From positions 128,001 to 192,000 of the forward strand of contig CAWDRG010000019.1 in the NCBI GenBank assembly GCA_963804645.1: a stretch of DNA of 64,000 nt. The letters run 5' to 3'. How positions within the stretch are numbered: the stretch's first letter is position 1; each line of letters opens with the position of its first letter. This document shows positions 50,547-60,080 of the stretch, in pieces. The DNA is from an uncultured Bacillota bacterium (GTDB taxonomy: Bacteria > Sysuimicrobiota > Sysuimicrobiia > Sysuimicrobiales > Segetimicrobiaceae). The position numbers were made by a program, and so were the translations under genes. The notes below the pieces were generated by a model. The model made no database searches, had not been told where the DNA came from, and was given only the letters and a program-made list of their open reading frames with translations.

Positions 50547-51827
50547 ATGCAGACGCGCAGCCCGGCTGACTCCTCGGTTCGTCCGCAGGACGATCCGTGG
50601 GACATGGCGCTCCGGCAGTTCGCTCACGCCGCGGATCGACTCTCCCTCAAGCGCGGGATCCGGGAGTACCTCGCCCGGCCCCACCGCGAGTTCACCGTGT
50701 GCTTTCCCGTCAGCATGGACGACGGGTCGGTGCAGATGTTCACCGGCTACCGGACCCTGCATAACGGCGTGCTCGGCCCCGCAAAGGGCGGGCTCCGCTA
50801 CAGTCCGCAGGTGCGCGTCAGCGAGGTGCGCGCGCTCGCGATGTGGATGACCTGGAAATGCGCGCTGAACCACCTGCCGTACGGCGGCGCGAAGGGCGGC
50901 GTCAGGTGCGATCCTCAGACGCTGTCGGCCGGGGAGTTGGAGCGCCTGACGCGGCGCTACGCGACCGAGATCAGCGTGGTGATCGGGCCCCACCAAGACA
51001 TTCCGGCGCCGGACGTGGGGACCAACGCCCAGGTCATGGCCTGGTTCATGGACACCTACAGCATGCACCGCGGCTACTCGATTCCGACCGTGGTCACCGG
51101 CAAGCCGGTGGTCATCGGCGGCTCGGCCGGCCGGCTGGAGGCGACGGGGCGGGGCGTGATGATCGCGGCGCGCGAAGCGGCGCGGTTCCGCGGTCTGCCG
51201 TTCGAAGGCGCCCGCGTCGTCGTACAGGGCAGCGGCAACGTGGGCGGCGTGGCGGCGCACCTGCTGCACGCCGCGGGGTGCACGGTGGTCGGGCTGAGCG
51301 ACGTACGCGGCGGCATCCATGCGCCCGAGGGATTCGATCCCGACGCGGCACTCCGGTACGCGCGCGACACTGGGGGCCTCGCCGGGTTTCCCGGGACCGA
51401 CTCGGTGTCGAATTCGGAGCTGCTGGAGCTGCCGTGCGACCTGCTCGTCCCGGCCGCGATCGAAGGGCAGATCACCTCGTCGAACGCCGACCGGATTCAG
51501 GCCCAGGTGATCGTGGAGGGCGCGAACGGCCCGACTACGCCGGACGCCGACGATATTCTCGAGCGCCGCGGGGTGCTGGTCGTGCCCGATATCCTCGCCA
51601 ACGCCGGCGGCGTGATCGTGTCGTACTTCGAGTGGGTGCAGGATCTCCAGTCCTACTTTTGGAGCGAGGACGAGATCAACGCGAACCTCGAGCGCCTCAT
51701 GGTGCGGAGCTTCGACGCGGTGACGCACTTCGCGGCGGAGCAGGGCGTGTCGCTGCGCACCGGCGCCCTCATCTTCGCGGTGAAGCGCGTCGCCGACGCG
51801 CTGATGATCCGCGGCATCTATCCCTAG
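50547..51827 (+). CDS. Glu/Leu/Phe/Val dehydrogenase (probable glutamate dehydrogenase)
   Basis: GPAKGGLRY, MTWKCA, GGAKGG, DIPAPDVGT, EATGRG, VEGANGP and NAGGVIVSYFEW. Extended -10 TGCTATGAT at about 50433-50441. Confidence 0.93.
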   Translation: MQTRSPADSSVRPQDDPWDMALRQFAHAADRLSLKRGIREYLARPHREFTVCFPVSMDDGSVQMFTGYRTLHNGVLGPAKGGLRYSPQVRVSEVRALAMWMTWKCALNHLPYGGAKGGVRCDPQTLSAGELERLTRRYATEISVVIGPHQDIPAPDVGTNAQVMAWFMDTYSMHRGYSIPTVVTGKPVVIGGSAGRLEATGRGVMIAAREAARFRGLPFEGARVVVQGSGNVGGVAAHLLHAAGCTVVGLSDVRGGIHAPEGFDPDAALRYARDTGGLAGFPGTDSVSNSELLELPCDLLVPAAIEGQITSSNADRIQAQVIVEGANGPTTPDADDILERRGVLVVPDILANAGGVIVSYFEWVQDLQSYFWSEDEINANLERLMVRSFDAVTHFAAEQGVSLRTGALIFAVKRVADALMIRGIYP

Positions 51828-51860
51828 GACCGGCCGGCCCGGCCGCGCCGGGAGCCTTGC

Positions 51861-51889
51861 TTGACACGGTCCGGGGGCGGGCGCATCAT
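51861..51889 (+). promoter_or_regulatory. sigma70-type promoter, probably leaderless, of rarA
   Basis: TTGACA-N17-CATCAT ending 6 nt before GTG 51896. Confidence 0.6.
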
Positions 51890-51895
51890 GGATGT

Positions 51896-53230
51896 GTGGA
51901 TCTGTTCACGCCGCCCGACGCGCCCGGGCGCGACCGCGGGGCCCCGCTGGCGGCGCGCATGCGCCCCCGCACGCTCGATGAGGTCGTCGGCCAGTCGCAC
52001 CTGCTCGGTCCCGATCGGCTGCTGCGGCGTGCGATCGAGACCGACACCCTGACCTCCGCGATCCTCTTCGGGCCGCCCGGCACGGGCAAGACGTCCTTGG
52101 CGCACGTCGTCGCGCAGGCCACGCGCGCGTACTTCGAGCCGGTGAACGCCGTCACGACCGGCGTCGCGGAAATTCGGCGGCTGATCGAGGAGGCGCGCGA
52201 CCGGCGGCGGTTTCATCAGGTGCCCACGATCCTGTTCGTGGACGAGATCCACCGCCTGAACAAGGCGCAGCAGGACGTGCTGCTGCCGCATGTGGAGGAC
52301 GGAACCGTGGTGCTGATTGGGGCCACCACTGGGAACCCGTTTCACGACGTCACGCCCACGCTCGTGTCGCGGTCGCGCCTGTTCGCGCTCGAACCGCTCA
52401 CCGCCGACGAGCTCGTCACGATTCTGCGCCGCGCGCTCGACGAGCCGCGCGGCCTCGGCGGACAGGGCGTGAGCGCGGAGGACGATGCGCTGGGCCACAT
52501 CGCCCGCATCGCCAACGGGGATGCGCGCGTCGCCCTCGGCGTGCTCGAACTGGCCGCGGCGACCGCCGCGGCGGGGCCGGACGGGGCTCGCGTGGTGACG
52601 CGCGACGCCGCCGAGCAGGCCGGGAAGCAGGTCCTGCTCTACGGCCGCGACGGCGACCAGCATTTCGACATGATCTCCGCGTTCATCAAGAGCATGCGGG
52701 GCTCCGATCCGGACGCGGCGGTGTACTGGCTCGCGCGGATGCTCGCCGGGGGCGAGGATCCGCGGTACCTCGCGCGGCGCATGGTCGTGCACGCCGCCGA
52801 GGACGTGGGCCTCGCGGATCCGCAGGCGCTGGTCGTCGCGGTCGCCGCGGCCCACGCGGTGGAACTTGTCGGGCTGCCCGAGGCGCGGATCCCGATGGCC
52901 GAGGCCGCGATCTACATCGCCACGGCCCCGAAGAGCAACGCGACGGTCCGGGCGATCTCCGACGCCGCGGGCGACGTGGCGCGCGAGGAGGCCCAGCCTG
53001 TGCCGCGTCCGCTGCGGGACGCGTCGGCCGCGGGATCGCGGCGGCTCGGGCACGGCGAGGGCTATGAGTATCCCCACGATCATCCGGGGGGCTTCGTGGC
53101 CCAGCAGTACGTCCCTGACAACGTCAAGAATCGGGTATATTATGAGCCCACGGCGTCGGGGTTCGAGGCGGAAGTGGCCCGCCGGCTCCGGGCGTGGTGG
53201 GCGGGGATCAAGCGCTACCGAGGCGGCTAG
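51896..53230 (+). CDS. rarA: Replication-associated recombination protein A (RarA/MgsA)
   Basis: PLAARMRPRTL, GPPGTGKT, DEIHR.NK.QQD, ISAFIKSMRGSDPDAA and EDVGLADP. Confidence 0.95.
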   Translation: MDLFTPPDAPGRDRGAPLAARMRPRTLDEVVGQSHLLGPDRLLRRAIETDTLTSAILFGPPGTGKTSLAHVVAQATRAYFEPVNAVTTGVAEIRRLIEEARDRRRFHQVPTILFVDEIHRLNKAQQDVLLPHVEDGTVVLIGATTGNPFHDVTPTLVSRSRLFALEPLTADELVTILRRALDEPRGLGGQGVSAEDDALGHIARIANGDARVALGVLELAAATAAAGPDGARVVTRDAAEQAGKQVLLYGRDGDQHFDMISAFIKSMRGSDPDAAVYWLARMLAGGEDPRYLARRMVVHAAEDVGLADPQALVVAVAAAHAVELVGLPEARIPMAEAAIYIATAPKSNATVRAISDAAGDVAREEAQPVPRPLRDASAAGSRRLGHGEGYEYPHDHPGGFVAQQYVPDNVKNRVYYEPTASGFEAEVARRLRAWWAGIKRYRGG

Positions 53231-53260
53231 CGCCGCGGGCCGGGACAGCGGGAGGTGCGT

Positions 53261-54361
53261 ATGGCTCGGGTGGCCGTCGCGATGAGCGGCGGGGTGGACA
53301 GCGCGGTCGCGGCCGCGCTGCTCGTCGACGAGGGGCACGAGGTCGTTGGGTTCACGATGAACCTGTGGCCGGCGTGGGTGCCCCAGACCGAGGGCGGCGC
53401 GGGATGCTGTGGCGTGGGCGCGATCGACGACGCGCGCGCGGCGGCGCGGACCCTCGGGATCCCGCATTACGTCCTGAACCTCCGCGACGCGTTTGAGCGC
53501 GAGGTGATCGGCTACTTCACGGGCGAGTACGCGCGCGGACGCACCCCGAACCCGTGCATCGCGTGCAACCGCGCGATCAAGTTTCGGCTGCTCTTGGATC
53601 GCGTGCTCGGCCTCGAAATGGACCTGCTCGCGACGGGGCACTACGCGCGCGTGCTTCACGGCGCCGACGGGCGTCACCGGCTCCTGCGTGCGGTCGACCG
53701 GCGGAAGGATCAATCGTACGTGCTGGCGAGCCTGGATCAAGCGCAGCTCGGCCGCGTCCGCTTCCCGGTCGGCGCGTACACGAAGCCCGAGATCCGCGAG
53801 ATCGCGAGGGCGCACCGCCTCGGCGTGGCGGAGAAGCCCGACAGCCAGGAGATCTGCTTCGTGCCGAGCGGGGACTACGGGGATGTGGTGGCCCGCTTGG
53901 AGCCCGCGGCGGTGCGGCCCGGGCCGATCTACGATCTCGCGGGGGACCGCGTCGGAGACCACCGCGGCGTGGGCCGCTACACCGTCGGGCAGCGGCGGGG
54001 GCTCGGGCTGCCCGGCAGCGTGCCGCGGTACGTGGTGTCGATCGACGCCGAGCGGAACGCGCTCGTCGTGGGCGACGCCGCCGACGTCCGGTGCGAAGAA
54101 CTGTGGGCCGCCGACGTGAACTGGATCGGCGTCCCCGCGCTCGACGGCGAGCGCGACGTGACGGTGCGGGTCCGCCACGCCGGAGCCGACGTGCCGGCGA
54201 CGATCTCGGACGGCCCCGAGGGCCGCGTCCGCGTCCGGTTCGCCGCGGCGCCGCGCGCGGCGGCGCCCGGGCAGGCGATCGTCTTTTATGCGGGGGACGT
54301 CGTGTTGGGAGGCGGGGTGATCGATGGGGTAAAGTACGGGGGGAGGGACGTGCATGCCTAG
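53261..54361 (+). CDS. mnmA: tRNA 2-thiouridylase MnmA
   Basis: AMSGGVDS, CC, TPNPCIACN, ATGHYAR, KDQSY, DSQEICF, YTVGQRRGL and PGQ. Confidence 0.97.
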   Translation: MARVAVAMSGGVDSAVAAALLVDEGHEVVGFTMNLWPAWVPQTEGGAGCCGVGAIDDARAAARTLGIPHYVLNLRDAFEREVIGYFTGEYARGRTPNPCIACNRAIKFRLLLDRVLGLEMDLLATGHYARVLHGADGRHRLLRAVDRRKDQSYVLASLDQAQLGRVRFPVGAYTKPEIREIARAHRLGVAEKPDSQEICFVPSGDYGDVVARLEPAAVRPGPIYDLAGDRVGDHRGVGRYTVGQRRGLGLPGSVPRYVVSIDAERNALVVGDAADVRCEELWAADVNWIGVPALDGERDVTVRVRHAGADVPATISDGPEGRVRVRFAAAPRAAAPGQAIVFYAGDVVLGGGVIDGVKYGGRDVHA

Positions 54362-54782
54362 CGGCGGGGTCGCGGAGATGAGCCTGGCCGTGATCGCGGT
54401 GGCGGTCGTGGTTGCGGTGATCTTCTTGGTGCCCGCCTTGATTGAGGTCCGGCGGGCCGCCGCGCGCGCCTCGCGGACGATCGAAACCGTGGACGCCGCG
54501 CTGCCGAGCCTGCTCACCGAGTTGACCGAGGCGGTCGGCACGATGAGTCGGACGGCCGACACCGTGGGCAGCCTGGCCGCGTCGGTGGAGCGATTGGACC
54601 GGCTGTCCGCGGCCGCGGTGCGGACCGCCGGAGCCCTGGTGGGGGTGATGGGGATGATGGGACAGACCACCCGCGGCGTGATGATGCCGTCTCTCGCCAA
54701 CGTGGTCGGCGTGCTGTCGGCCGTGCGGGAGGGCATCGAGTGGGTGCGACCGAGACGCGACAAGAGGAGGGACGGAACATGA
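54354..54782 (+). CDS. DUF948/YtxG-like membrane-anchored coiled-coil protein
   Basis: N-terminal TM helix followed by a heptad-like helical body; directly upstream of the YtxH-like gene. Confidence 0.65.
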   Translation: MPSGGVAEMSLAVIAVAVVVAVIFLVPALIEVRRAAARASRTIETVDAALPSLLTELTEAVGTMSRTADTVGSLAASVERLDRLSAAAVRTAGALVGVMGMMGQTTRGVMMPSLANVVGVLSAVREGIEWVRPRRDKRRDGT

Positions 54783-55132
54783 GCGAGCGACGGGATTTCG
54801 CGGGTGGACTGCTGCTGGGGGTACTGGTGGGGGCGGCGCTCGGCGTGCTGTTCGCGCCGGCGGCCGGCAACGAGACGCGGGAGCGGCTGCGGCGCGAGGG
54901 CGAGCAGCTGCGGGACCGGGCGCGGGAGCAGGCCGAGCGCGTCACCGAGCAGGCGCGCCGGAAGGCGGACGAGGTGGCGTCGCGCGTGCGGTCGACCGCG
55001 GGCGACGTGCTCGAGCGCGGCCGATCGGCGATTGAGGAGCGCGCCGAGCGGTTGCGCGACGCGTACCAGGCGGGGCGGGACTCCGCGTTTGGGCGGGAAG
55101 GGGGAGAGCGTCGGGACGACGACGCCGACTGA
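54779..55132 (+). CDS. YtxH domain protein
   Basis: F..GLLLG.LVGAALG.LFAP..G.ETR..L motif plus a charged helical tail. Confidence 0.88.
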   Translation: MSERRDFAGGLLLGVLVGAALGVLFAPAAGNETRERLRREGEQLRDRAREQAERVTEQARRKADEVASRVRSTAGDVLERGRSAIEERAERLRDAYQAGRDSAFGREGGERRDDDAD

Positions 55133-55133
55133 G

Positions 55134-55562
55134 ATGGCGGGAGCGACTCGGGTGGGGGCGACAGAGCGCGTTGACGTCACGATTCCCAAGCGCCCGGAGT
55201 TTGTGAGCGTCGCTCGGCTGACCGCGGCGGCGGTCGCCGGGCGCCAGGGGTTCGCGTTCGACGAGATCGAGGATCTCAAGATCGCGGTGAGCGAGGCGTG
55301 CACGTTGCTGATCCGGGCCGCGACTGACACGAGCGCGCCCCTGCGCATCGCCTTCGTGCTGCGCGGGGACGAGCTGGCGGTGTCTGTGGAGACCCGGGAG
55401 CCGGGCGTAGTGTTTGAGGCGGCGCCGGCCGACGACGCGGCGATGGACGAAGGGCAGCTCGGCATGTTCTTGCTGCGGTGTCTGGTCGACGAGGTCGAGG
55501 TGGCCCAGGACCCCACGGTGGGAACGGCCACGCTGCGGCTCGTGAAGCGCCGCGGGGTGTAA
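55134..55562 (+). CDS. rsbW: RsbW-like anti-sigma factor with degenerate kinase motifs
   Basis: P..PEFV..ARL, DEIEDLKIAVSEACT and LG.FL...LVDEV; directly upstream of a SigB-family sigma factor. Confidence 0.82.
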   Translation: MAGATRVGATERVDVTIPKRPEFVSVARLTAAAVAGRQGFAFDEIEDLKIAVSEACTLLIRAATDTSAPLRIAFVLRGDELAVSVETREPGVVFEAAPADDAAMDEGQLGMFLLRCLVDEVEVAQDPTVGTATLRLVKRRGV

Positions 55563-56355: not shown

Positions 56356-57692
56356 GCGGCGCGCCGGGCCCGCGCGCGCCCACCCTGGCCGCCGCCTCCC
56401 GGATCGTCGCCCGCCTGCGCGGCGCCGGGTTCGAGGCGTACCTCGCGGGCGGCTGCGTGCGGGACATGCTCCTCGGCCGTGCCCCGGCGGACTACGACAT
56501 CGCGACCGGCGCAACGCCCCCCGAGGTCACCGCGCTGTTTCCCGAGACCGTCCAGGTCGGTGCGGCGTTCGGGGTGGTCCAGGTGCTCGCCGGCGGCGCG
56601 GCGTACGAGGTCGCGACGTTTCGGTCGGAGGGCCCGTATCTCGACCGGCGCCACCCCTCATCGGTGCACTACGCCACGGTGCGCGACGACGCCCAGCGCC
56701 GCGACTTCACGATCAACGGGCTGTTCTGGGATCCCGAGACCCACGCGGTGCTGGACTTCGTCGGCGGGCAGGCGGATCTGGCGGCGCGGGTGGTGCGCAC
56801 GATCGGCGATCCGTCGGCGCGGTTCGCCGAGGACGCGCTGCGGATGCTGCGGGCGGTGCGGCAGGCCGCCGAGCTGGGGTATGCGATCGCGCCGGACACG
56901 AGCGAGGCGATCCGGCGCATGGCCGCCGGGCTCGAGGCCGTCAGCGCCGAGCGGGTGCGCGACGAACTCGTGCGGATCGTGACCGGGCCGGATCCGGCGC
57001 GCGGGCTCGTCCTGCTGCGCGAGACGGGACTCCTCGAGATTGTGCTGCCCGAGGTCGCGGCGGAATTCGGCGTGCCGCAGCCCGCGGAGTTTCACCCGGA
57101 AGGCGACGTGTTCGAGCACACCCGCCTCGTGCTGAAGAGCCTGCGGGCGCCCACGGTCGCGCTCGCCATGGCGGCGCTGCTCCACGACGTCGGGAAGCCG
57201 TCGACGCTCGTGCACGCCGACCGCATCCGGTTCAACGGGCACGACGAGGTCGGTGCCGAGCTCGCCCGGGAGGTGATGACGCGCCTCAGGTTCCCCCGCC
57301 GGGAGATCGACCGGGTGACCGCGCTCGTCCGCCAGCACATGATTTTCAAGGACGTGCCCCGGATGCGTGAGGCGCGCCTCCGGCGTTTGCTCGACGAGCC
57401 GGAGTTTCCCGAGCTGGTGGAGCTGCACCGTGCCGACTGCGCGGCGAGCCACGGGGATCTGTCGACGTACGAGTGGGTGCGGGCCAGGCAGGCGGAGATC
57501 GCCGCCCATCCGCCGGCCCCGCGGTACGTCACGGGGGACAACCTGCTCGCGCTCGGCGTGCCGCCGGGCCCGCGGATCGGTGAGATCCTCCGGGCGGTCG
57601 ACGACGCGCGGCTCGAGGGACGCGTCCGGACGCCGGAGGAGGCGATCGCGCTGGCGCGCACGCTGGCGGCCGACACGCCCGGAGACGGGTAG
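56352..57692 (+). CDS. cca: CCA tRNA nucleotidyltransferase (class II, HD domain), probable CTG start
   Basis: EAYLAGGCVRD, DYDIAT, EVATFR, RRDFTIN, EDALRMLRA.R and LLHDVGKP. The conserved N-terminus extends upstream of the first canonical start (56457). Confidence 0.9.
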   Translation: MSGAPGPRAPTLAAASRIVARLRGAGFEAYLAGGCVRDMLLGRAPADYDIATGATPPEVTALFPETVQVGAAFGVVQVLAGGAAYEVATFRSEGPYLDRRHPSSVHYATVRDDAQRRDFTINGLFWDPETHAVLDFVGGQADLAARVVRTIGDPSARFAEDALRMLRAVRQAAELGYAIAPDTSEAIRRMAAGLEAVSAERVRDELVRIVTGPDPARGLVLLRETGLLEIVLPEVAAEFGVPQPAEFHPEGDVFEHTRLVLKSLRAPTVALAMAALLHDVGKPSTLVHADRIRFNGHDEVGAELAREVMTRLRFPRREIDRVTALVRQHMIFKDVPRMREARLRRLLDEPEFPELVELHRADCAASHGDLSTYEWVRARQAEIAAHPPAPRYVTGDNLLALGVPPGPRIGEILRAVDDARLEGRVRTPEEAIALARTLAADTPGDG

Positions 57693-57777
57693 CGCCGGCG
57701 CATGCCGGAGGAGATGCGGCGCGCCTGGTCGAACTGACGTACGTTCGGGCACGGCCCCGAACGCGGAGGGCATCGGA

Positions 57778-58611
57778 CTGCAAGCACGATCGCGCACGAC
57801 GACGCGTGTCATCGCCCTCGTCAACCAGAAGGGCGGATGCGGCAAGACGACGACCGCGGTGAACCTGGCCGCGTGCCTCGCCGTCAACAAGCGTCGGGTG
57901 CTGCTGGTCGACTTCGATCCCCAGGCGAACGCGACTGTCAGCCTCGGGGTGGATCCCGGAGAGTTGTCGCGGACGGTGTACCAGGTGATCGTCGCGGATC
58001 CGGGGGAGGACGGCGAAGGCGTCGAGCTGGCCAGCGTCATCACGCCTTCCAGCATCGAGCACCTCGACCTCGTGCCGTCGTCGATCGATCTGGCCGCCGC
58101 CGAGCTCGAGCTGTCGGCCCGCATCGGCCGGGAGAACACGCTCCGCAAGAAGCTCGCCCCGGTGCGGGATCAGTACGACTACGTCCTGATCGACACGCCG
58201 CCGTCGCTCGGCCTCCTGACCCTTAACGCCCTCGTGGCGTGCGATGAGGTCATCATTCCGATCCAGACCCACTACTACGCGCTGCTCGGAATGCGGCAGC
58301 TGCTGCGCACGATCAAGGTCGTGCGCGAGGAGGTCGGACACGAGATCGAGATCGCCGGGGTCGTGCCGACGATGTACGACGCCCGGACGAGCATCAGCAA
58401 GGAGATCCTCGAGGGCATCAAGGACTACTTCGGCGATCGGATGTTCAAGAGCGCGATTCACCAGAATATCAAGCTGGTGGAGTCCAGCATGGTGGGCGTG
58501 CCAGTGTTTGTCCACGACTCTTCCTCACGCGGCGCCCAGGAGTACATGGCGCTCGCGAAGGAGGTGATGGCCCTTGAGCAAGCGCCGCGACGCGCTCCGG
58601 CGGGGCATTAG
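57778..58611 (+). CDS. ParA/Soj family ATPase (orphan), probable CTG start
   Basis: NQKGGCGKTT deviant Walker A, DFDPQANAT, IDTPPSLG and TMYDAR. GGAGG lies 8 nt before in-frame CTG 57778. Confidence 0.92.
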   Translation: MQARSRTTTRVIALVNQKGGCGKTTTAVNLAACLAVNKRRVLLVDFDPQANATVSLGVDPGELSRTVYQVIVADPGEDGEGVELASVITPSSIEHLDLVPSSIDLAAAELELSARIGRENTLRKKLAPVRDQYDYVLIDTPPSLGLLTLNALVACDEVIIPIQTHYYALLGMRQLLRTIKVVREEVGHEIEIAGVVPTMYDARTSISKEILEGIKDYFGDRMFKSAIHQNIKLVESSMVGVPVFVHDSSSRGAQEYMALAKEVMALEQAPRRAPAGH

Positions 58612-59410
58612 GTCCCTGATTCACGACACCTCCCGCGAGCTCGCGGACCTGGACAGCCGCGAGACGCCGCGCGGGGGTGCCGACGAGCACGGCACGGCCG
58701 CGCCGATCGACGACGCGACGGCCGAGCGCGACGCCCGGCCGTCGGCGGATGCCGTGCCGGGTCCGTTCGGGGAGGACGTCGGCGGGCCCTCAATCGACGC
58801 CGAAAGCGACGGGCTCCTGAACGCGGAAGTCATGGCGGTCGAGGTGCGCGAGATCAGCCGCGGACCGGCGACCCAGCCCGCCCGTGAGCCGCGAGAGACG
58901 GCTGACCCCGAGCGGCACGTCGCGGAGCCGGCGGAGGTGGCGGCGGCCGAACCCGTCGAGGCGGCCCCACAGGCCGATGGGCCGGCCGCGCCTGTGCAGG
59001 AGGCGCTCACGATCGCGCCCCCGGTCCCTGGCGCGGCACCCGAGCAGCCCGTGACGCTCGGCCTCGAGGGGATGGCCGAGGCGGCGCCGGCCGGCGAGCA
59101 GGACACCGGGGCGCCGTCCCGCAAGCGCCCGACGCGCGCCGCGTCCAAGAAGGCGGCGAAGCGGGCGGGTGCGCGCCAGGCGGTCCGCATGCCGGCCGGC
59201 GAGGCGCTGGATGGGGTCGACCCGGCGCAGGCGCAGTCTCGGCGGGGTGTATGCGTGGCCTATTTCGTGGACCACGCGTGCTGGCACGTGACGAACGCCT
59301 ACTGCAACACGGCGCTGCATGTCTGCGTCATGCGCGACTGCCCCGTGTACCATCTCCACCGGGACGCCCTCGAGAAGCGGTTCGCCGGCAAATACAAGCA
59401 CTTTTGGTGA
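58574..59410 (+). CDS. Hypothetical ParA partner: basic N-terminal peptide, disordered linker and Cys/His-rich C-terminal domain
   Basis: GGAGG then TTG start overlapping the parA 3' end; MSKRRDALRRGIRSLI...C-x8-C-x7-C-x6-C-x4-CPVY. Confidence 0.78.
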   Translation: MSKRRDALRRGIRSLIHDTSRELADLDSRETPRGGADEHGTAAPIDDATAERDARPSADAVPGPFGEDVGGPSIDAESDGLLNAEVMAVEVREISRGPATQPAREPRETADPERHVAEPAEVAAAEPVEAAPQADGPAAPVQEALTIAPPVPGAAPEQPVTLGLEGMAEAAPAGEQDTGAPSRKRPTRAASKKAAKRAGARQAVRMPAGEALDGVDPAQAQSRRGVCVAYFVDHACWHVTNAYCNTALHVCVMRDCPVYHLHRDALEKRFAGKYKHFW

Positions 59411-59417
59411 TCGGCGC

Positions 59418-60080
59418 TTATCCGGAGAGGTCGAGCTCCAGGAGTTCGCGGAGGTGCTGGACCGTCCGCCAGGGCGTGACCCCGCGCTGGCGCAGTTCCT
59501 CGGCGGGCCGGCGGTACGCGATGAAGCGCGCGCCGGCGTCCGCCGCCGCGGCCCCGTCGATCCATGAGTCGCCGATCACGTAGGCGCGCTCGCCGGCACT
59601 CCCGAGACGCCGGAGCACCTCGCGCACGCCGTCGCCGGCCGGTTTGAGCGTGCTGACGTCGCCGCGGGCCACGAGCGTCTGTGCGTACTCCAGGAGGCGC
59701 GTCGCGCGCAGCGCCTCGAGGGCGGCGGCGCGGCTGTTGTTCGTGAGGATCGCGACCGGGTGCCCGCGCGCGCCGAGCGCACGCAGCACCGCGGGGGCGT
59801 CGTCGAGCACGTCGACCTCGACGAGCCCGGCGCGCTCATACGCGTCGATGATCCGCCACATCTCCTCGGCCGTCGCCGTGCCGTGCGCGCGGTCGTGGTC
59901 CGTCCCGCACGTCACGAGCTCGGGGATCGCGCGGCGCGTTAGGGCCTCGTCGGTCGCGTCCGTCGCGCCCGCGCTCCGCAGCAGGGCGATTAGGGCCCGG
60001 CGGATCGCCAAGAAGTCGATCCGCGACCCGATCAAGGTGTTGTCCATGTCGAAGATCAGCGCCGAGGCGGTCGGCATCAT
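59418..60080 (-). CDS. HAD-superfamily hydrolase (phosphoglycolate phosphatase-like)
   Basis: IFDMDNTL, LTNN, KP and IGDSWID motifs. TACAAT (60087-60092) lies 6 nt before ATG 60080. Confidence 0.9.
   Translation of the reverse strand: MMPTASALIFDMDNTLIGSRIDFLAIRRALIALLRSAGATDATDEALTRRAIPELVTCGTDHDRAHGTATAEEMWRIIDAYERAGLVEVDVLDDAPAVLRALGARGHPVAILTNNSRAAALEALRATRLLEYAQTLVARGDVSTLKPAGDGVREVLRRLGSAGERAYVIGDSWIDGAAAADAGARFIAYRRPAEELRQRGVTPWRTVQHLRELLELDLSG

Follow-up and report, generated by a model that had tools for sequence, protein, structure and literature searches.

What does a bacterium do with a second ParA that lies apart from its chromosome partition genes and is overlapped by a gene encoding something other than a ParB? 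This question is raised by parA2 and the gene overlapping its 3' end, whose product we call the partner. The two genes lie in a stretch of 64,000 nucleotides (nt) of contig CAWDRG010000019.1 (hereafter the window, to which all positions refer; about 70% G+C) from an uncultured soil bacterium of the phylum CSP1-3/Sysuimicrobiota. Chromosomes, plasmids, divisomes, carboxysomes, flagella and chemotaxis arrays all depend on ParA/MinD ATPases for their position. The choice of load falls to the partner protein, and "orphans" are still numerous among these ATPases (PMC10241942). We consider it likely that parA2 and the overlapping gene form a dedicated ParA-partner pair, a second positioning module that operates without ParB. 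The features of the locus are collected in Table 1.

ParA2 is a Soj-type ATPase. Against Pfam, it matched AAA_31 (E 1.4e-62; 211.2 bits, cut-off 27) and CbiA (E 8.3e-24; 84.4 bits, cut-off 25.4), and its closest solved structures are the chromosomal ParA/Soj proteins 8ray, 1wcv and 6iub, chain 8ray_B being the best (phmmer E 7.3e-64). Residues K18, G19-G20, K23-T24, D45/D47 and D139 are invariant in 22 of 22 aligned sequences, as expected for the deviant Walker A, A' and Walker B motifs. The preliminary description of this DNA, made without database searches, was therefore right about a Soj-like ParA with an intact KGGCGKTT motif. The MinD model TIGR01968 (cut-off 212.9 bits) was not reached by ParA2, which scored 55.2 bits in the protein search and 54.1 bits in the genome search. 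Several invariant positions set ParA2 orthologs apart from canonical ParA, among them the segment IQTHYYALLGM and Cys21 of the Walker A loop, which is present in 21 of 21 ParA2 sequences and is Val in canonical ParA. Such differences would fit a separate partner specificity.

The same host genome (5.3 Mb in 22 contigs, 96.8% complete) carries a classic partition locus elsewhere. A genome profile search for ParB_N gave a single match, on contig C9, in a gene that adjoins another ParA gene (product 45% identical to ParA2) and gidB. This is a complete gidB-parA-parB locus of the origin type, on a contig other than that of the window, and the view of ParA2 as an orphan away from origin genes is borne out. 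The host's own ParB starts with MTRRGLGRGLGALI, and its ParA-binding motif reads LGRGLGALI. It also served as a positive control for the partner scan, matching the Pfam families ParB_N (8.9e-34) and HTH_ParB (2.2e-34).

Searched against Pfam and NCBIfam at E <= 0.1, the partner itself matched no family, including ParB_N, the GERRxRA-type CTPase and helix-turn-helix (HTH) families. Its sequence opens with (M/L)SKRRDALRRGIRSLI. Behind this conserved peptide, linker residues 31-180 contain 30 D+E, 8 K+R, 33 A and 21 P, with an isoelectric point (pI) of 4.1. The basic patch that follows, rich in Lys, Ala and Arg, is present in the long forms of the family and lacking in the short ones. The C-terminal domain (pI 9.0) has the pattern C227-x8-C236-W-x6-C244-x6-C251-x4-C256-PVY together with six His. 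Thus the 278-residue reading frame overlapping parA, its division into N-terminal peptide, acidic linker, basic patch and Cys-rich end, and the lack of a GERRxRA box or HTH, all read earlier from the bare sequence, were confirmed by the reading frame itself, by composition and by the family scans, respectively.

Table 1. Positions of parA2, the partner gene and their parts in the window.
Feature	Position	Strand	Evidence
Shine-Dalgarno of parA2, GGAGGG	57765..57770	+	read from sequence; GGAGG kept at the same distance before CTG in close loci
parA2, Soj-type ParA ATPase, 277 amino acids (aa), CTG start, KGGCGKTT with signature lysine	57778..58611	+	translation, profiles, linkage
Shine-Dalgarno of the partner gene, AAGGAGGTG, inside the parA2 coding sequence	58558..58566	+	read from sequence
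38-nt overlap of parA2 3' end and partner 5' end (translational coupling)	58574..58611	+	read from sequence; kept in relatives
Partner gene (5-Cys partner), 278 aa, TTG start 8 nt past AAGGAGGTG	58574..59410	+	open reading frame, family alignment
Conserved N-terminal peptide, residues 1-30, pI 10.5	58574..58663	+	alignment, composition
ParB-like ParA-binding motif L8-x-R10-x-I12-x-x-L15-I16	58595..58621	+	counts across 44 sequences
Acidic Ala/Pro/Glu-rich hypervariable linker, residues 31-180	58664..59113	+	alignment, composition
Basic patch, residues 181-206, 10 K+R and no D/E	59114..59191	+	composition
C-terminal 5-Cys/His domain, residues 223-278, ending in invariant Trp	59240..59407	+	alignment, AlphaFold2 (AF2) model

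A protein search gave 45 relatives of the partner, none with a Pfam domain and with "hypothetical protein" as the sole name given in any source. In an alignment of 46 sequences (180-367 aa), near-invariance at residues 1-30 and 223-278 contrasts with a hypervariable, unalignable linker; over the whole family, sizes range from open frames of 133 aa up to 369 aa. The combination of two near-invariant ends and a hypervariable middle across 46 proteins rules out a chance reading frame of the kind that high G+C content produces. Profile searches of Pfam, NCBIfam, the sequences of the PDB and a large protein collection agree that the partner fits no characterized partner family, as the preliminary description had supposed. 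Within the linker, at 58805-58850 (residues ~78-92), a short motif of alternating hydrophobic residues recurs amid otherwise unalignable sequence. Its versions include AEVMAVEVRE, RPILRLVRDP, VRYLRPE and VEWIVGPD, and it is also found in proteins P0006, P0010, P0074 and P0080 and at loci L015, L017, L018 and L021. It may be a second short interaction motif.

A scan of species-representative genomes, in records titled with Sysuimicrobiota (CSP1-3) genera, "Bacillota", "Armatimonadota" or "bacterium", provided 26 loci. In 25 of them, the gene immediately upstream of the partner gene, on the same strand, encodes a ParA2 ortholog (65-88% identical by tblastn); at the 26th (L012) the contig ends 40 nt before the match and the upstream gene is cut. 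The N-terminal peptide is present in all 25 loci that include the partner N-terminus. In 16 of 17 resolved loci, the two genes overlap by exactly 38 nt and an internal Shine-Dalgarno sequence is present, and L014 has a 29-nt gap; the overlap pattern used did not resolve eight further loci. A AGGAGGTGAT-like sequence is kept 5' of the partner start in the related loci compared. The first 12 codons of the partner coincide with the last 12 codons of ParA2, so that this segment is dual-coded across the phylum (16 of 17 resolved loci).

The C-terminal domain occurs in 89 of 94 genomes of the phylum, in 53 of the 54 high-quality ones and in 31 of 31 genera; apart from a single additional weak match, each genome has one copy. 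Two unpublished genomes, G017 and G025, are part of these counts; leaving them out gives 87 of 92. Completeness is 65-94% in the five genomes with no match to the domain. When 1.84 billion representative proteins were searched with the profile, only 62 matched at E <= 0.001; in the 53 strongest, the domain is at the C-terminus or at most nine residues from it.

The N-terminal peptide suggests how the two proteins might meet. Partners of ParA/MinD ATPases as a rule have a charged and disordered N-terminus, the remainder being devoted to the cargo (PMC10241942; PMC11407121). In Myxococcus xanthus, each of the ParB residues L11, L15, L18 and I19 is indispensable for binding to ParA, and stimulation of the ATPase depends on R13 (10.1101/2025.03.14.642875). 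Partner residues L8, R10, I12, L15 and I16 are spaced exactly as L11, R13, L15, L18 and I19 of M. xanthus ParB, which gives the four spaced hydrophobic residues around a central Arg/Lys expected of a ParB-type ParA-binding peptide. Among 44 sequences with an N-terminus, L8 is found in 44, R10 in 43, I/V/L12 in 44, L15 in 43 and I/L16 in 44. The proposal of a conserved, basic peptide of the ParB type thus stands. On the ATPase side, ParA2 was compared with 8ray_B in the phmmer alignment, anchored by the equivalence of M. xanthus D60 and D47. The M. xanthus ParA pocket residues V116, L150, L152, L155, L187 and L192 correspond to L110, L144, L146, L149, V181 and V186 of ParA2, so that all six mapped positions are hydrophobic in this purely sequence-based mapping. 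Docking of the partner on ParA2 in the manner of ParB appears well supported at this level. A prediction of the complex (ParA2 dimer with ATP, Mg and partner residues 1-40) gave a score of 0.00 against a mark of 0.32, which counts as evidence neither way. A search with residues 1-40 (proteins of 152-487 aa) returned members of the same family in 15 of 15 matches, and the tag was found on no other cargo domain.

The other end of the partner has relatives outside the family. Four weak profile matches (P0088, P0089, P0091 and P0092) show the arrangement CWEI...C-x-AY-x5-CWEV-x4-C-x6-C-x4-CPVY, and alignment of the 5-Cys domain with this unnamed CWEV...CPVY group gave an hhalign probability of 98.1% (E 8.7e-14, 54 columns), with C-x-AY-x5-CW-x-V-x4-C-x6-C-x4-CPVY as the common pattern. 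In a joint alignment of 44 rows, C236, W237, C251, C256, P257 and E267 are invariant, distant relatives included, and C227, C244, V258, Y259 and H262 occur in at least 90% of the rows. The last residue, W278, is invariant in sets of 46 and of 26 sequences. The distant relatives have two further Cys where the partner family has conserved His; Zn is weakly favored over Fe-S as the metal of the domain. With P0092 as the query, a search matched only P0092 itself and one close relative. The distant relatives fell below the threshold of the NCBIfam "two-CW domain" NF045718 (E 0.03 and 0.12). The domain of the window has one of the two CW motifs that this model requires, and it gave no match to it (threshold 35 bits) at E <= 1, nor at the locus in the genome search. 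We found no paper on the two-CW domain.

A first AF2 model, built from 26 close sequences and covering the last 75 residues, was of poor quality (pLDDT 55.6) and was set aside. A second model, from the 44-row alignment with distant relatives, reached pLDDT 81.5 and pTM 0.65 and predicts a small domain of short helices. This model had no match in the PDB at E <= 10 with Foldseek, and its best Z was 2.3 with VIA-align over 48,161 chains, in which no solved relative appeared. Searching the sequences of the PDB with a profile produced a single chance match (E 0.35), and the ESM Atlas returned only scores of 0.82, one of them for the family's own cluster. The absence of a fold match is no proof of a new fold.

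The genomic surroundings of the distant relatives differ from those of the partner family. No ParA-like reading frame was found within 3.5 kb of them in ten metagenome loci, four of which are shorter than 3 kb. Thus, the suggested link of the Cys domain to parA holds within the family, where it was seen in nearly every locus, and fails for the distant relatives. These are small proteins, either stand-alone or tandem, and their contexts are unrelated, with riboflavin genes, cheW and cheA with a methyl-accepting chemotaxis protein (MCP), superoxide dismutase, multihaem cytochromes, DUF5714 and CobW among their neighbors. In one arrangement, a stand-alone CW/CPVY protein of 81-82 aa lies between ribH of a riboflavin operon and two cheW, MCP and cheA genes (L031/L032, 5001-5246); in another, such a protein precedes a superoxide dismutase and a multihaem cytochrome (L034, 1567-1815). 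There are hints here of a sensing role for the CW/CPVY domain in other lineages. Because its distant relatives are unlinked to parA, the domain appears to be an independent module rather than a ParA-specific one, and it was probably recruited, as a putative metal-binding unit, to be the cargo end of a ParA partner.

Taken at this strength, a mechanism can be outlined. ParA2 would dimerize with ATP and probably bind nucleoid DNA non-specifically, and the N-terminal peptide of the partner would fit the hydrophobic pocket at the dimer's edge and stimulate ATP hydrolysis. The linker, flexible and of very variable length, would tether this peptide to the small folded C-terminal domain. With five invariant Cys and two invariant His, this domain most likely binds a metal (Zn rather than Fe-S) and might attach the partner to its cargo or make it multivalent. 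The preliminary description had proposed a new ParA-adaptor pair, a proposal that linkage, conservation across the phylum, the peptide and the lack of a known partner family now sustain in part; its further idea, that a Zn or Fe-S domain selects the cargo or makes positioning redox-sensitive, would be a conjecture. It had also named what would refute it, such as domain homologs unlinked to parA, a peptide that is not conserved or a match to a characterized partner family; for the family itself, nothing of this kind was found. In print, we found no ParA partner with a cysteine domain and no description of the pair, and a term search of the CSP1-3 phylum paper (PMC11604079) gave no mention of ParA, MinD, FtsZ, cell division, sporulation or cell shape.

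Several observations weigh against this reading. ParA2 reaches only 121.6 bits with the NCBIfam ParA_partition equivalog NF041546, below the cut-off of 180. To be strongly stimulated, the ParA of M. xanthus requires a dimeric partner that presents its peptides in pairs (10.1101/2025.03.14.642875). Residues 1-12 of the partner, including L8, R10 and I12, are dual-coded with parA2, which may inflate their conservation; however, residues 13-30, outside the overlap, are conserved as well, and dual coding cannot account for the whole peptide. The absence of parA beside the distant relatives has been mentioned, and the domain by itself is no pointer to ParA. Finally, no candidate for the cargo emerged, and known cargoes or companions of such ATPases are missing. 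The host genome has no bacterial microcompartment (BMC) shell gene and no CheW, which rules out a BMC or carboxysome and a chemotaxis array as the cargo, and it has no MinC, no DivIVA and no MinD over the cut-off. A family 1 encapsulin (Linocin_M18, E 2.5e-99) is encoded in the host genome outside the window (G000:C21:27052-27804); it was rejected as the cargo on finding it in just 6 of 94 genomes of the phylum, mostly of the window's own genus.

How does the pair compare with described systems? With chromosomal ParABS (Soj-Spo0J; M. xanthus, PDB 8RAY) it shares a Soj-type ATPase with the signature lysine and a conserved hydrophobic ParB pocket, and the partner N-terminus carries an L-x-R-x-L-x-x-L-I ParA-binding motif, so that the docking step would be of the ParA-ParB kind. 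In contrast to ParB, the partner lacks the ParB_N CTPase domain, an HTH and the C-terminal dimerization domain; no parS-like site was found nearby, and the host has its separate gidB-parA-parB. McdA-McdB is similar in that its ATPase is of the ParA type and its second protein is poorly conserved and for the most part disordered (PMC7182216; PMC10241942). McdB also has a charged N-terminus (compare pI 10.5 for partner residues 1-30), acidic and basic residues in patterned blocks, and, among its last four residues, an invariant Trp (PMC7182216); in the partner, W278 is the very last residue. Unlike McdB, the partner has an Ala/Pro/Glu-rich linker with no Gln-rich region, and a folded 5-Cys domain instead; BMC shell genes are absent from the host, and ParA2 keeps the signature lysine that type 1 McdA does not have (PMC7182216). 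The pair belongs to neither the ParA-ParB nor the McdA-McdB family. The unnamed CWEV...CPVY group, with which the 5-Cys domain aligns through P0088, P0089, P0091 and P0092, differs in an extra N-terminal CW motif or tandem copies, in the absence of the ParB-like peptide and in not lying beside ParA.

Similar in layout is type Ib plasmid partition, such as ParF-ParG of TP228, where a small ParA and a small partner are encoded by tightly coupled genes and a flexible N-terminal tail of ParG with an arginine activates the ATPase (10.1101/2025.03.14.642875); the partner would share this last feature in kind, through its motif. The pair differs in being chromosomal, single-copy and syntenic across the phylum. 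ParG is a ribbon-helix-helix (RHH) DNA binder, whereas the C-terminal domain of the partner is modelled as all-helical and Cys-rich, with no known fold.

This likeness underlies an alternative that we think unlikely, a second DNA-partition system. The partner would then be a new centromere-binding protein analogous to small type Ib proteins such as ParG, its metal domain and basic patch binding one particular site of the chromosome, a region that ParA2 would segregate or organize. Partition operons of the small plasmid type indeed show this layout: a small ParA that lacks an N-terminal HTH comes first, and the small partner that overlaps it has a flexible, basic N-terminal tail. Residues 181-206 are strongly basic and rich in Lys, Ala and Arg, and the Cys domain has its own basic pI. 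ParA2 also keeps basic residues at K232, which the same alignment equates with M. xanthus R238, and at R203, positions whose equivalents we take to serve DNA binding. However, a search for centromere-like iterated or palindromic repeats at 57500-59600 gave only short matches, at the level of chance for 72% G+C. Short forms from hot-spring lineages do without the basic patch, and the partner matched no HTH, RHH or other DNA-binding family in Pfam, NCBIfam or the PDB profile search. As to an RHH or HTH fold, the family searches gave no match, the model consists of short helices and the fold searches came back empty, all of which is compatible with a DNA-binding function. The stand-alone and tandem relatives of the domain in unrelated contexts argue against a dedicated centromere binder, as does the complete canonical parAB already present in the genome.

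The dedicated ParA-partner pair that we favor needs a cargo, and a pair that is single-copy and near-universal in the phylum calls for a universal one. The candidates remaining are the chromosome or nucleoid, the division apparatus, or something else. A nucleoid-linked or division-site process is our leading guess, a tentative one, made because Min, DivIVA and Noc-type proteins are missing: MinC over its cut-off was found in 0 of 94 genomes of the phylum, and the host genome has no Noc-type second ParB, its lone ParB_N match being the canonical ParB. FtsZ is present in the host genome.

The most specific version of this guess makes the complex a division-site or nucleoid-occlusion regulator of the MipZ or PomXYZ kind, which would place or inhibit FtsZ in a phylum without Min. 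We judge this improbable. The missing MinC, MinD, DivIVA and Noc and the presence of FtsZ would suit it, and the distribution of the pair is as wide as one would expect of a division function. On the other hand, the case is built on absences alone, and many bacteria without Min have no ParA substitute. The pair is unlinked to dcw/fts genes, its neighbors being mnmA, ytxH, cca and asnS, and the partner has no similarity to MipZ partners, PomX or PomY. It is a bolder and more doubtful thought that the pair is a phylum-specific, Min- and Noc-independent system that places the division site or organizes the nucleoid through a metal- or redox-sensing domain with a fold not in the PDB.

A third alternative, very improbable, is a pair for metal-cluster handling in which ParA2 would act as a maturation ATPase of the CooC, Mrp/NBP35 or NifH type with the Cys-rich protein as its carrier or target: Cys21 of the Walker A loop and the five invariant Cys of the partner domain would suit such a function, but ParA2 is nearest to chromosomal ParA/Soj structures and keeps the ParB-binding pocket, Mrp/NifH-type families match it weakly and over the P-loop only, and its sequence shows no CxxC or CxC, presumably the motifs of Mrp/NifH-type ATPases.

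Some properties of the locus stand beside the dedicated ParA-partner pair without deciding its function. The start of parA2 is a CTG at 57778, 7 nt past GGAGGG, and no ATG, GTG or TTG lies near the N-terminus. A CTG after GGAGG is kept in ten close loci, in which the preceding codon is variable; distant orthologs use ATG. Loci with the CTG start are the window (57765-57780) and L002-L008, L011 and L013, and the partner is TTG-started in the same group. Two weak starts in a coupled pair may fix a low ratio of both proteins. In four RNA libraries from peat, all made in one study, short contigs cover parts of parA2 (58211-58426), the junction of the two genes (58504-58661, with no differences) and the linker (58716-58878 and 58975-59111). 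They provide weak support for expression of the pair; carry-over of DNA is possible, and the uncovered parts are uninformative. A promoter and terminator scan of the locus gave nothing useful.

The general gene order is mnmA-ytxH-(kinase-sigma)-cca-parA2-partner-(HAD)-asnS, with cca upstream in 23 of 26 loci, asnS downstream in 17 of 26 and the sigma gene in 11 of 26. In the window, genes for DUF948, YtxH, an anti-sigma-type kinase (HATPase_c_2), a sigma-70 factor (r2/r3/r4) and cca precede parA2 on the same strand, and a convergent HAD hydrolase gene and then asnS follow the partner. The placement of the pair downstream of rsbW-sigB-cca is therefore correct for the window, where kinase, sigma factor and cca are co-directional; as a general link it does not hold and, with the sigma gene in just 11 of 26 loci, it is local to the closer relatives of the window. 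Inserts of ~2 kb between cca and parA2 (L018, L021, L022, L024) and of at least 3 kb between partner and HAD (L006, L009) break the synteny on both sides of the pair, never between parA2 and partner. An open frame of 1235 aa, antisense to mnmA and the DUF948, YtxH and kinase genes (51824-55531, minus strand), looks like an artefact of high G+C content.

The pair is near-universal in an uncultured phylum that is widespread in soil and hot springs. It would offer a clean test of the "luggage-tag" idea, with the same peptide on a different cargo domain, and it gives the uncharacterized CW/CPVY cysteine domain a first functional context. If the bolder reading, with its metal- or redox-sensing domain, were true, the redox or metal state of the cell would gate positioning. 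More generally, a new cargo might come to light through the pair, or another way in which bacteria without Min place the division site.

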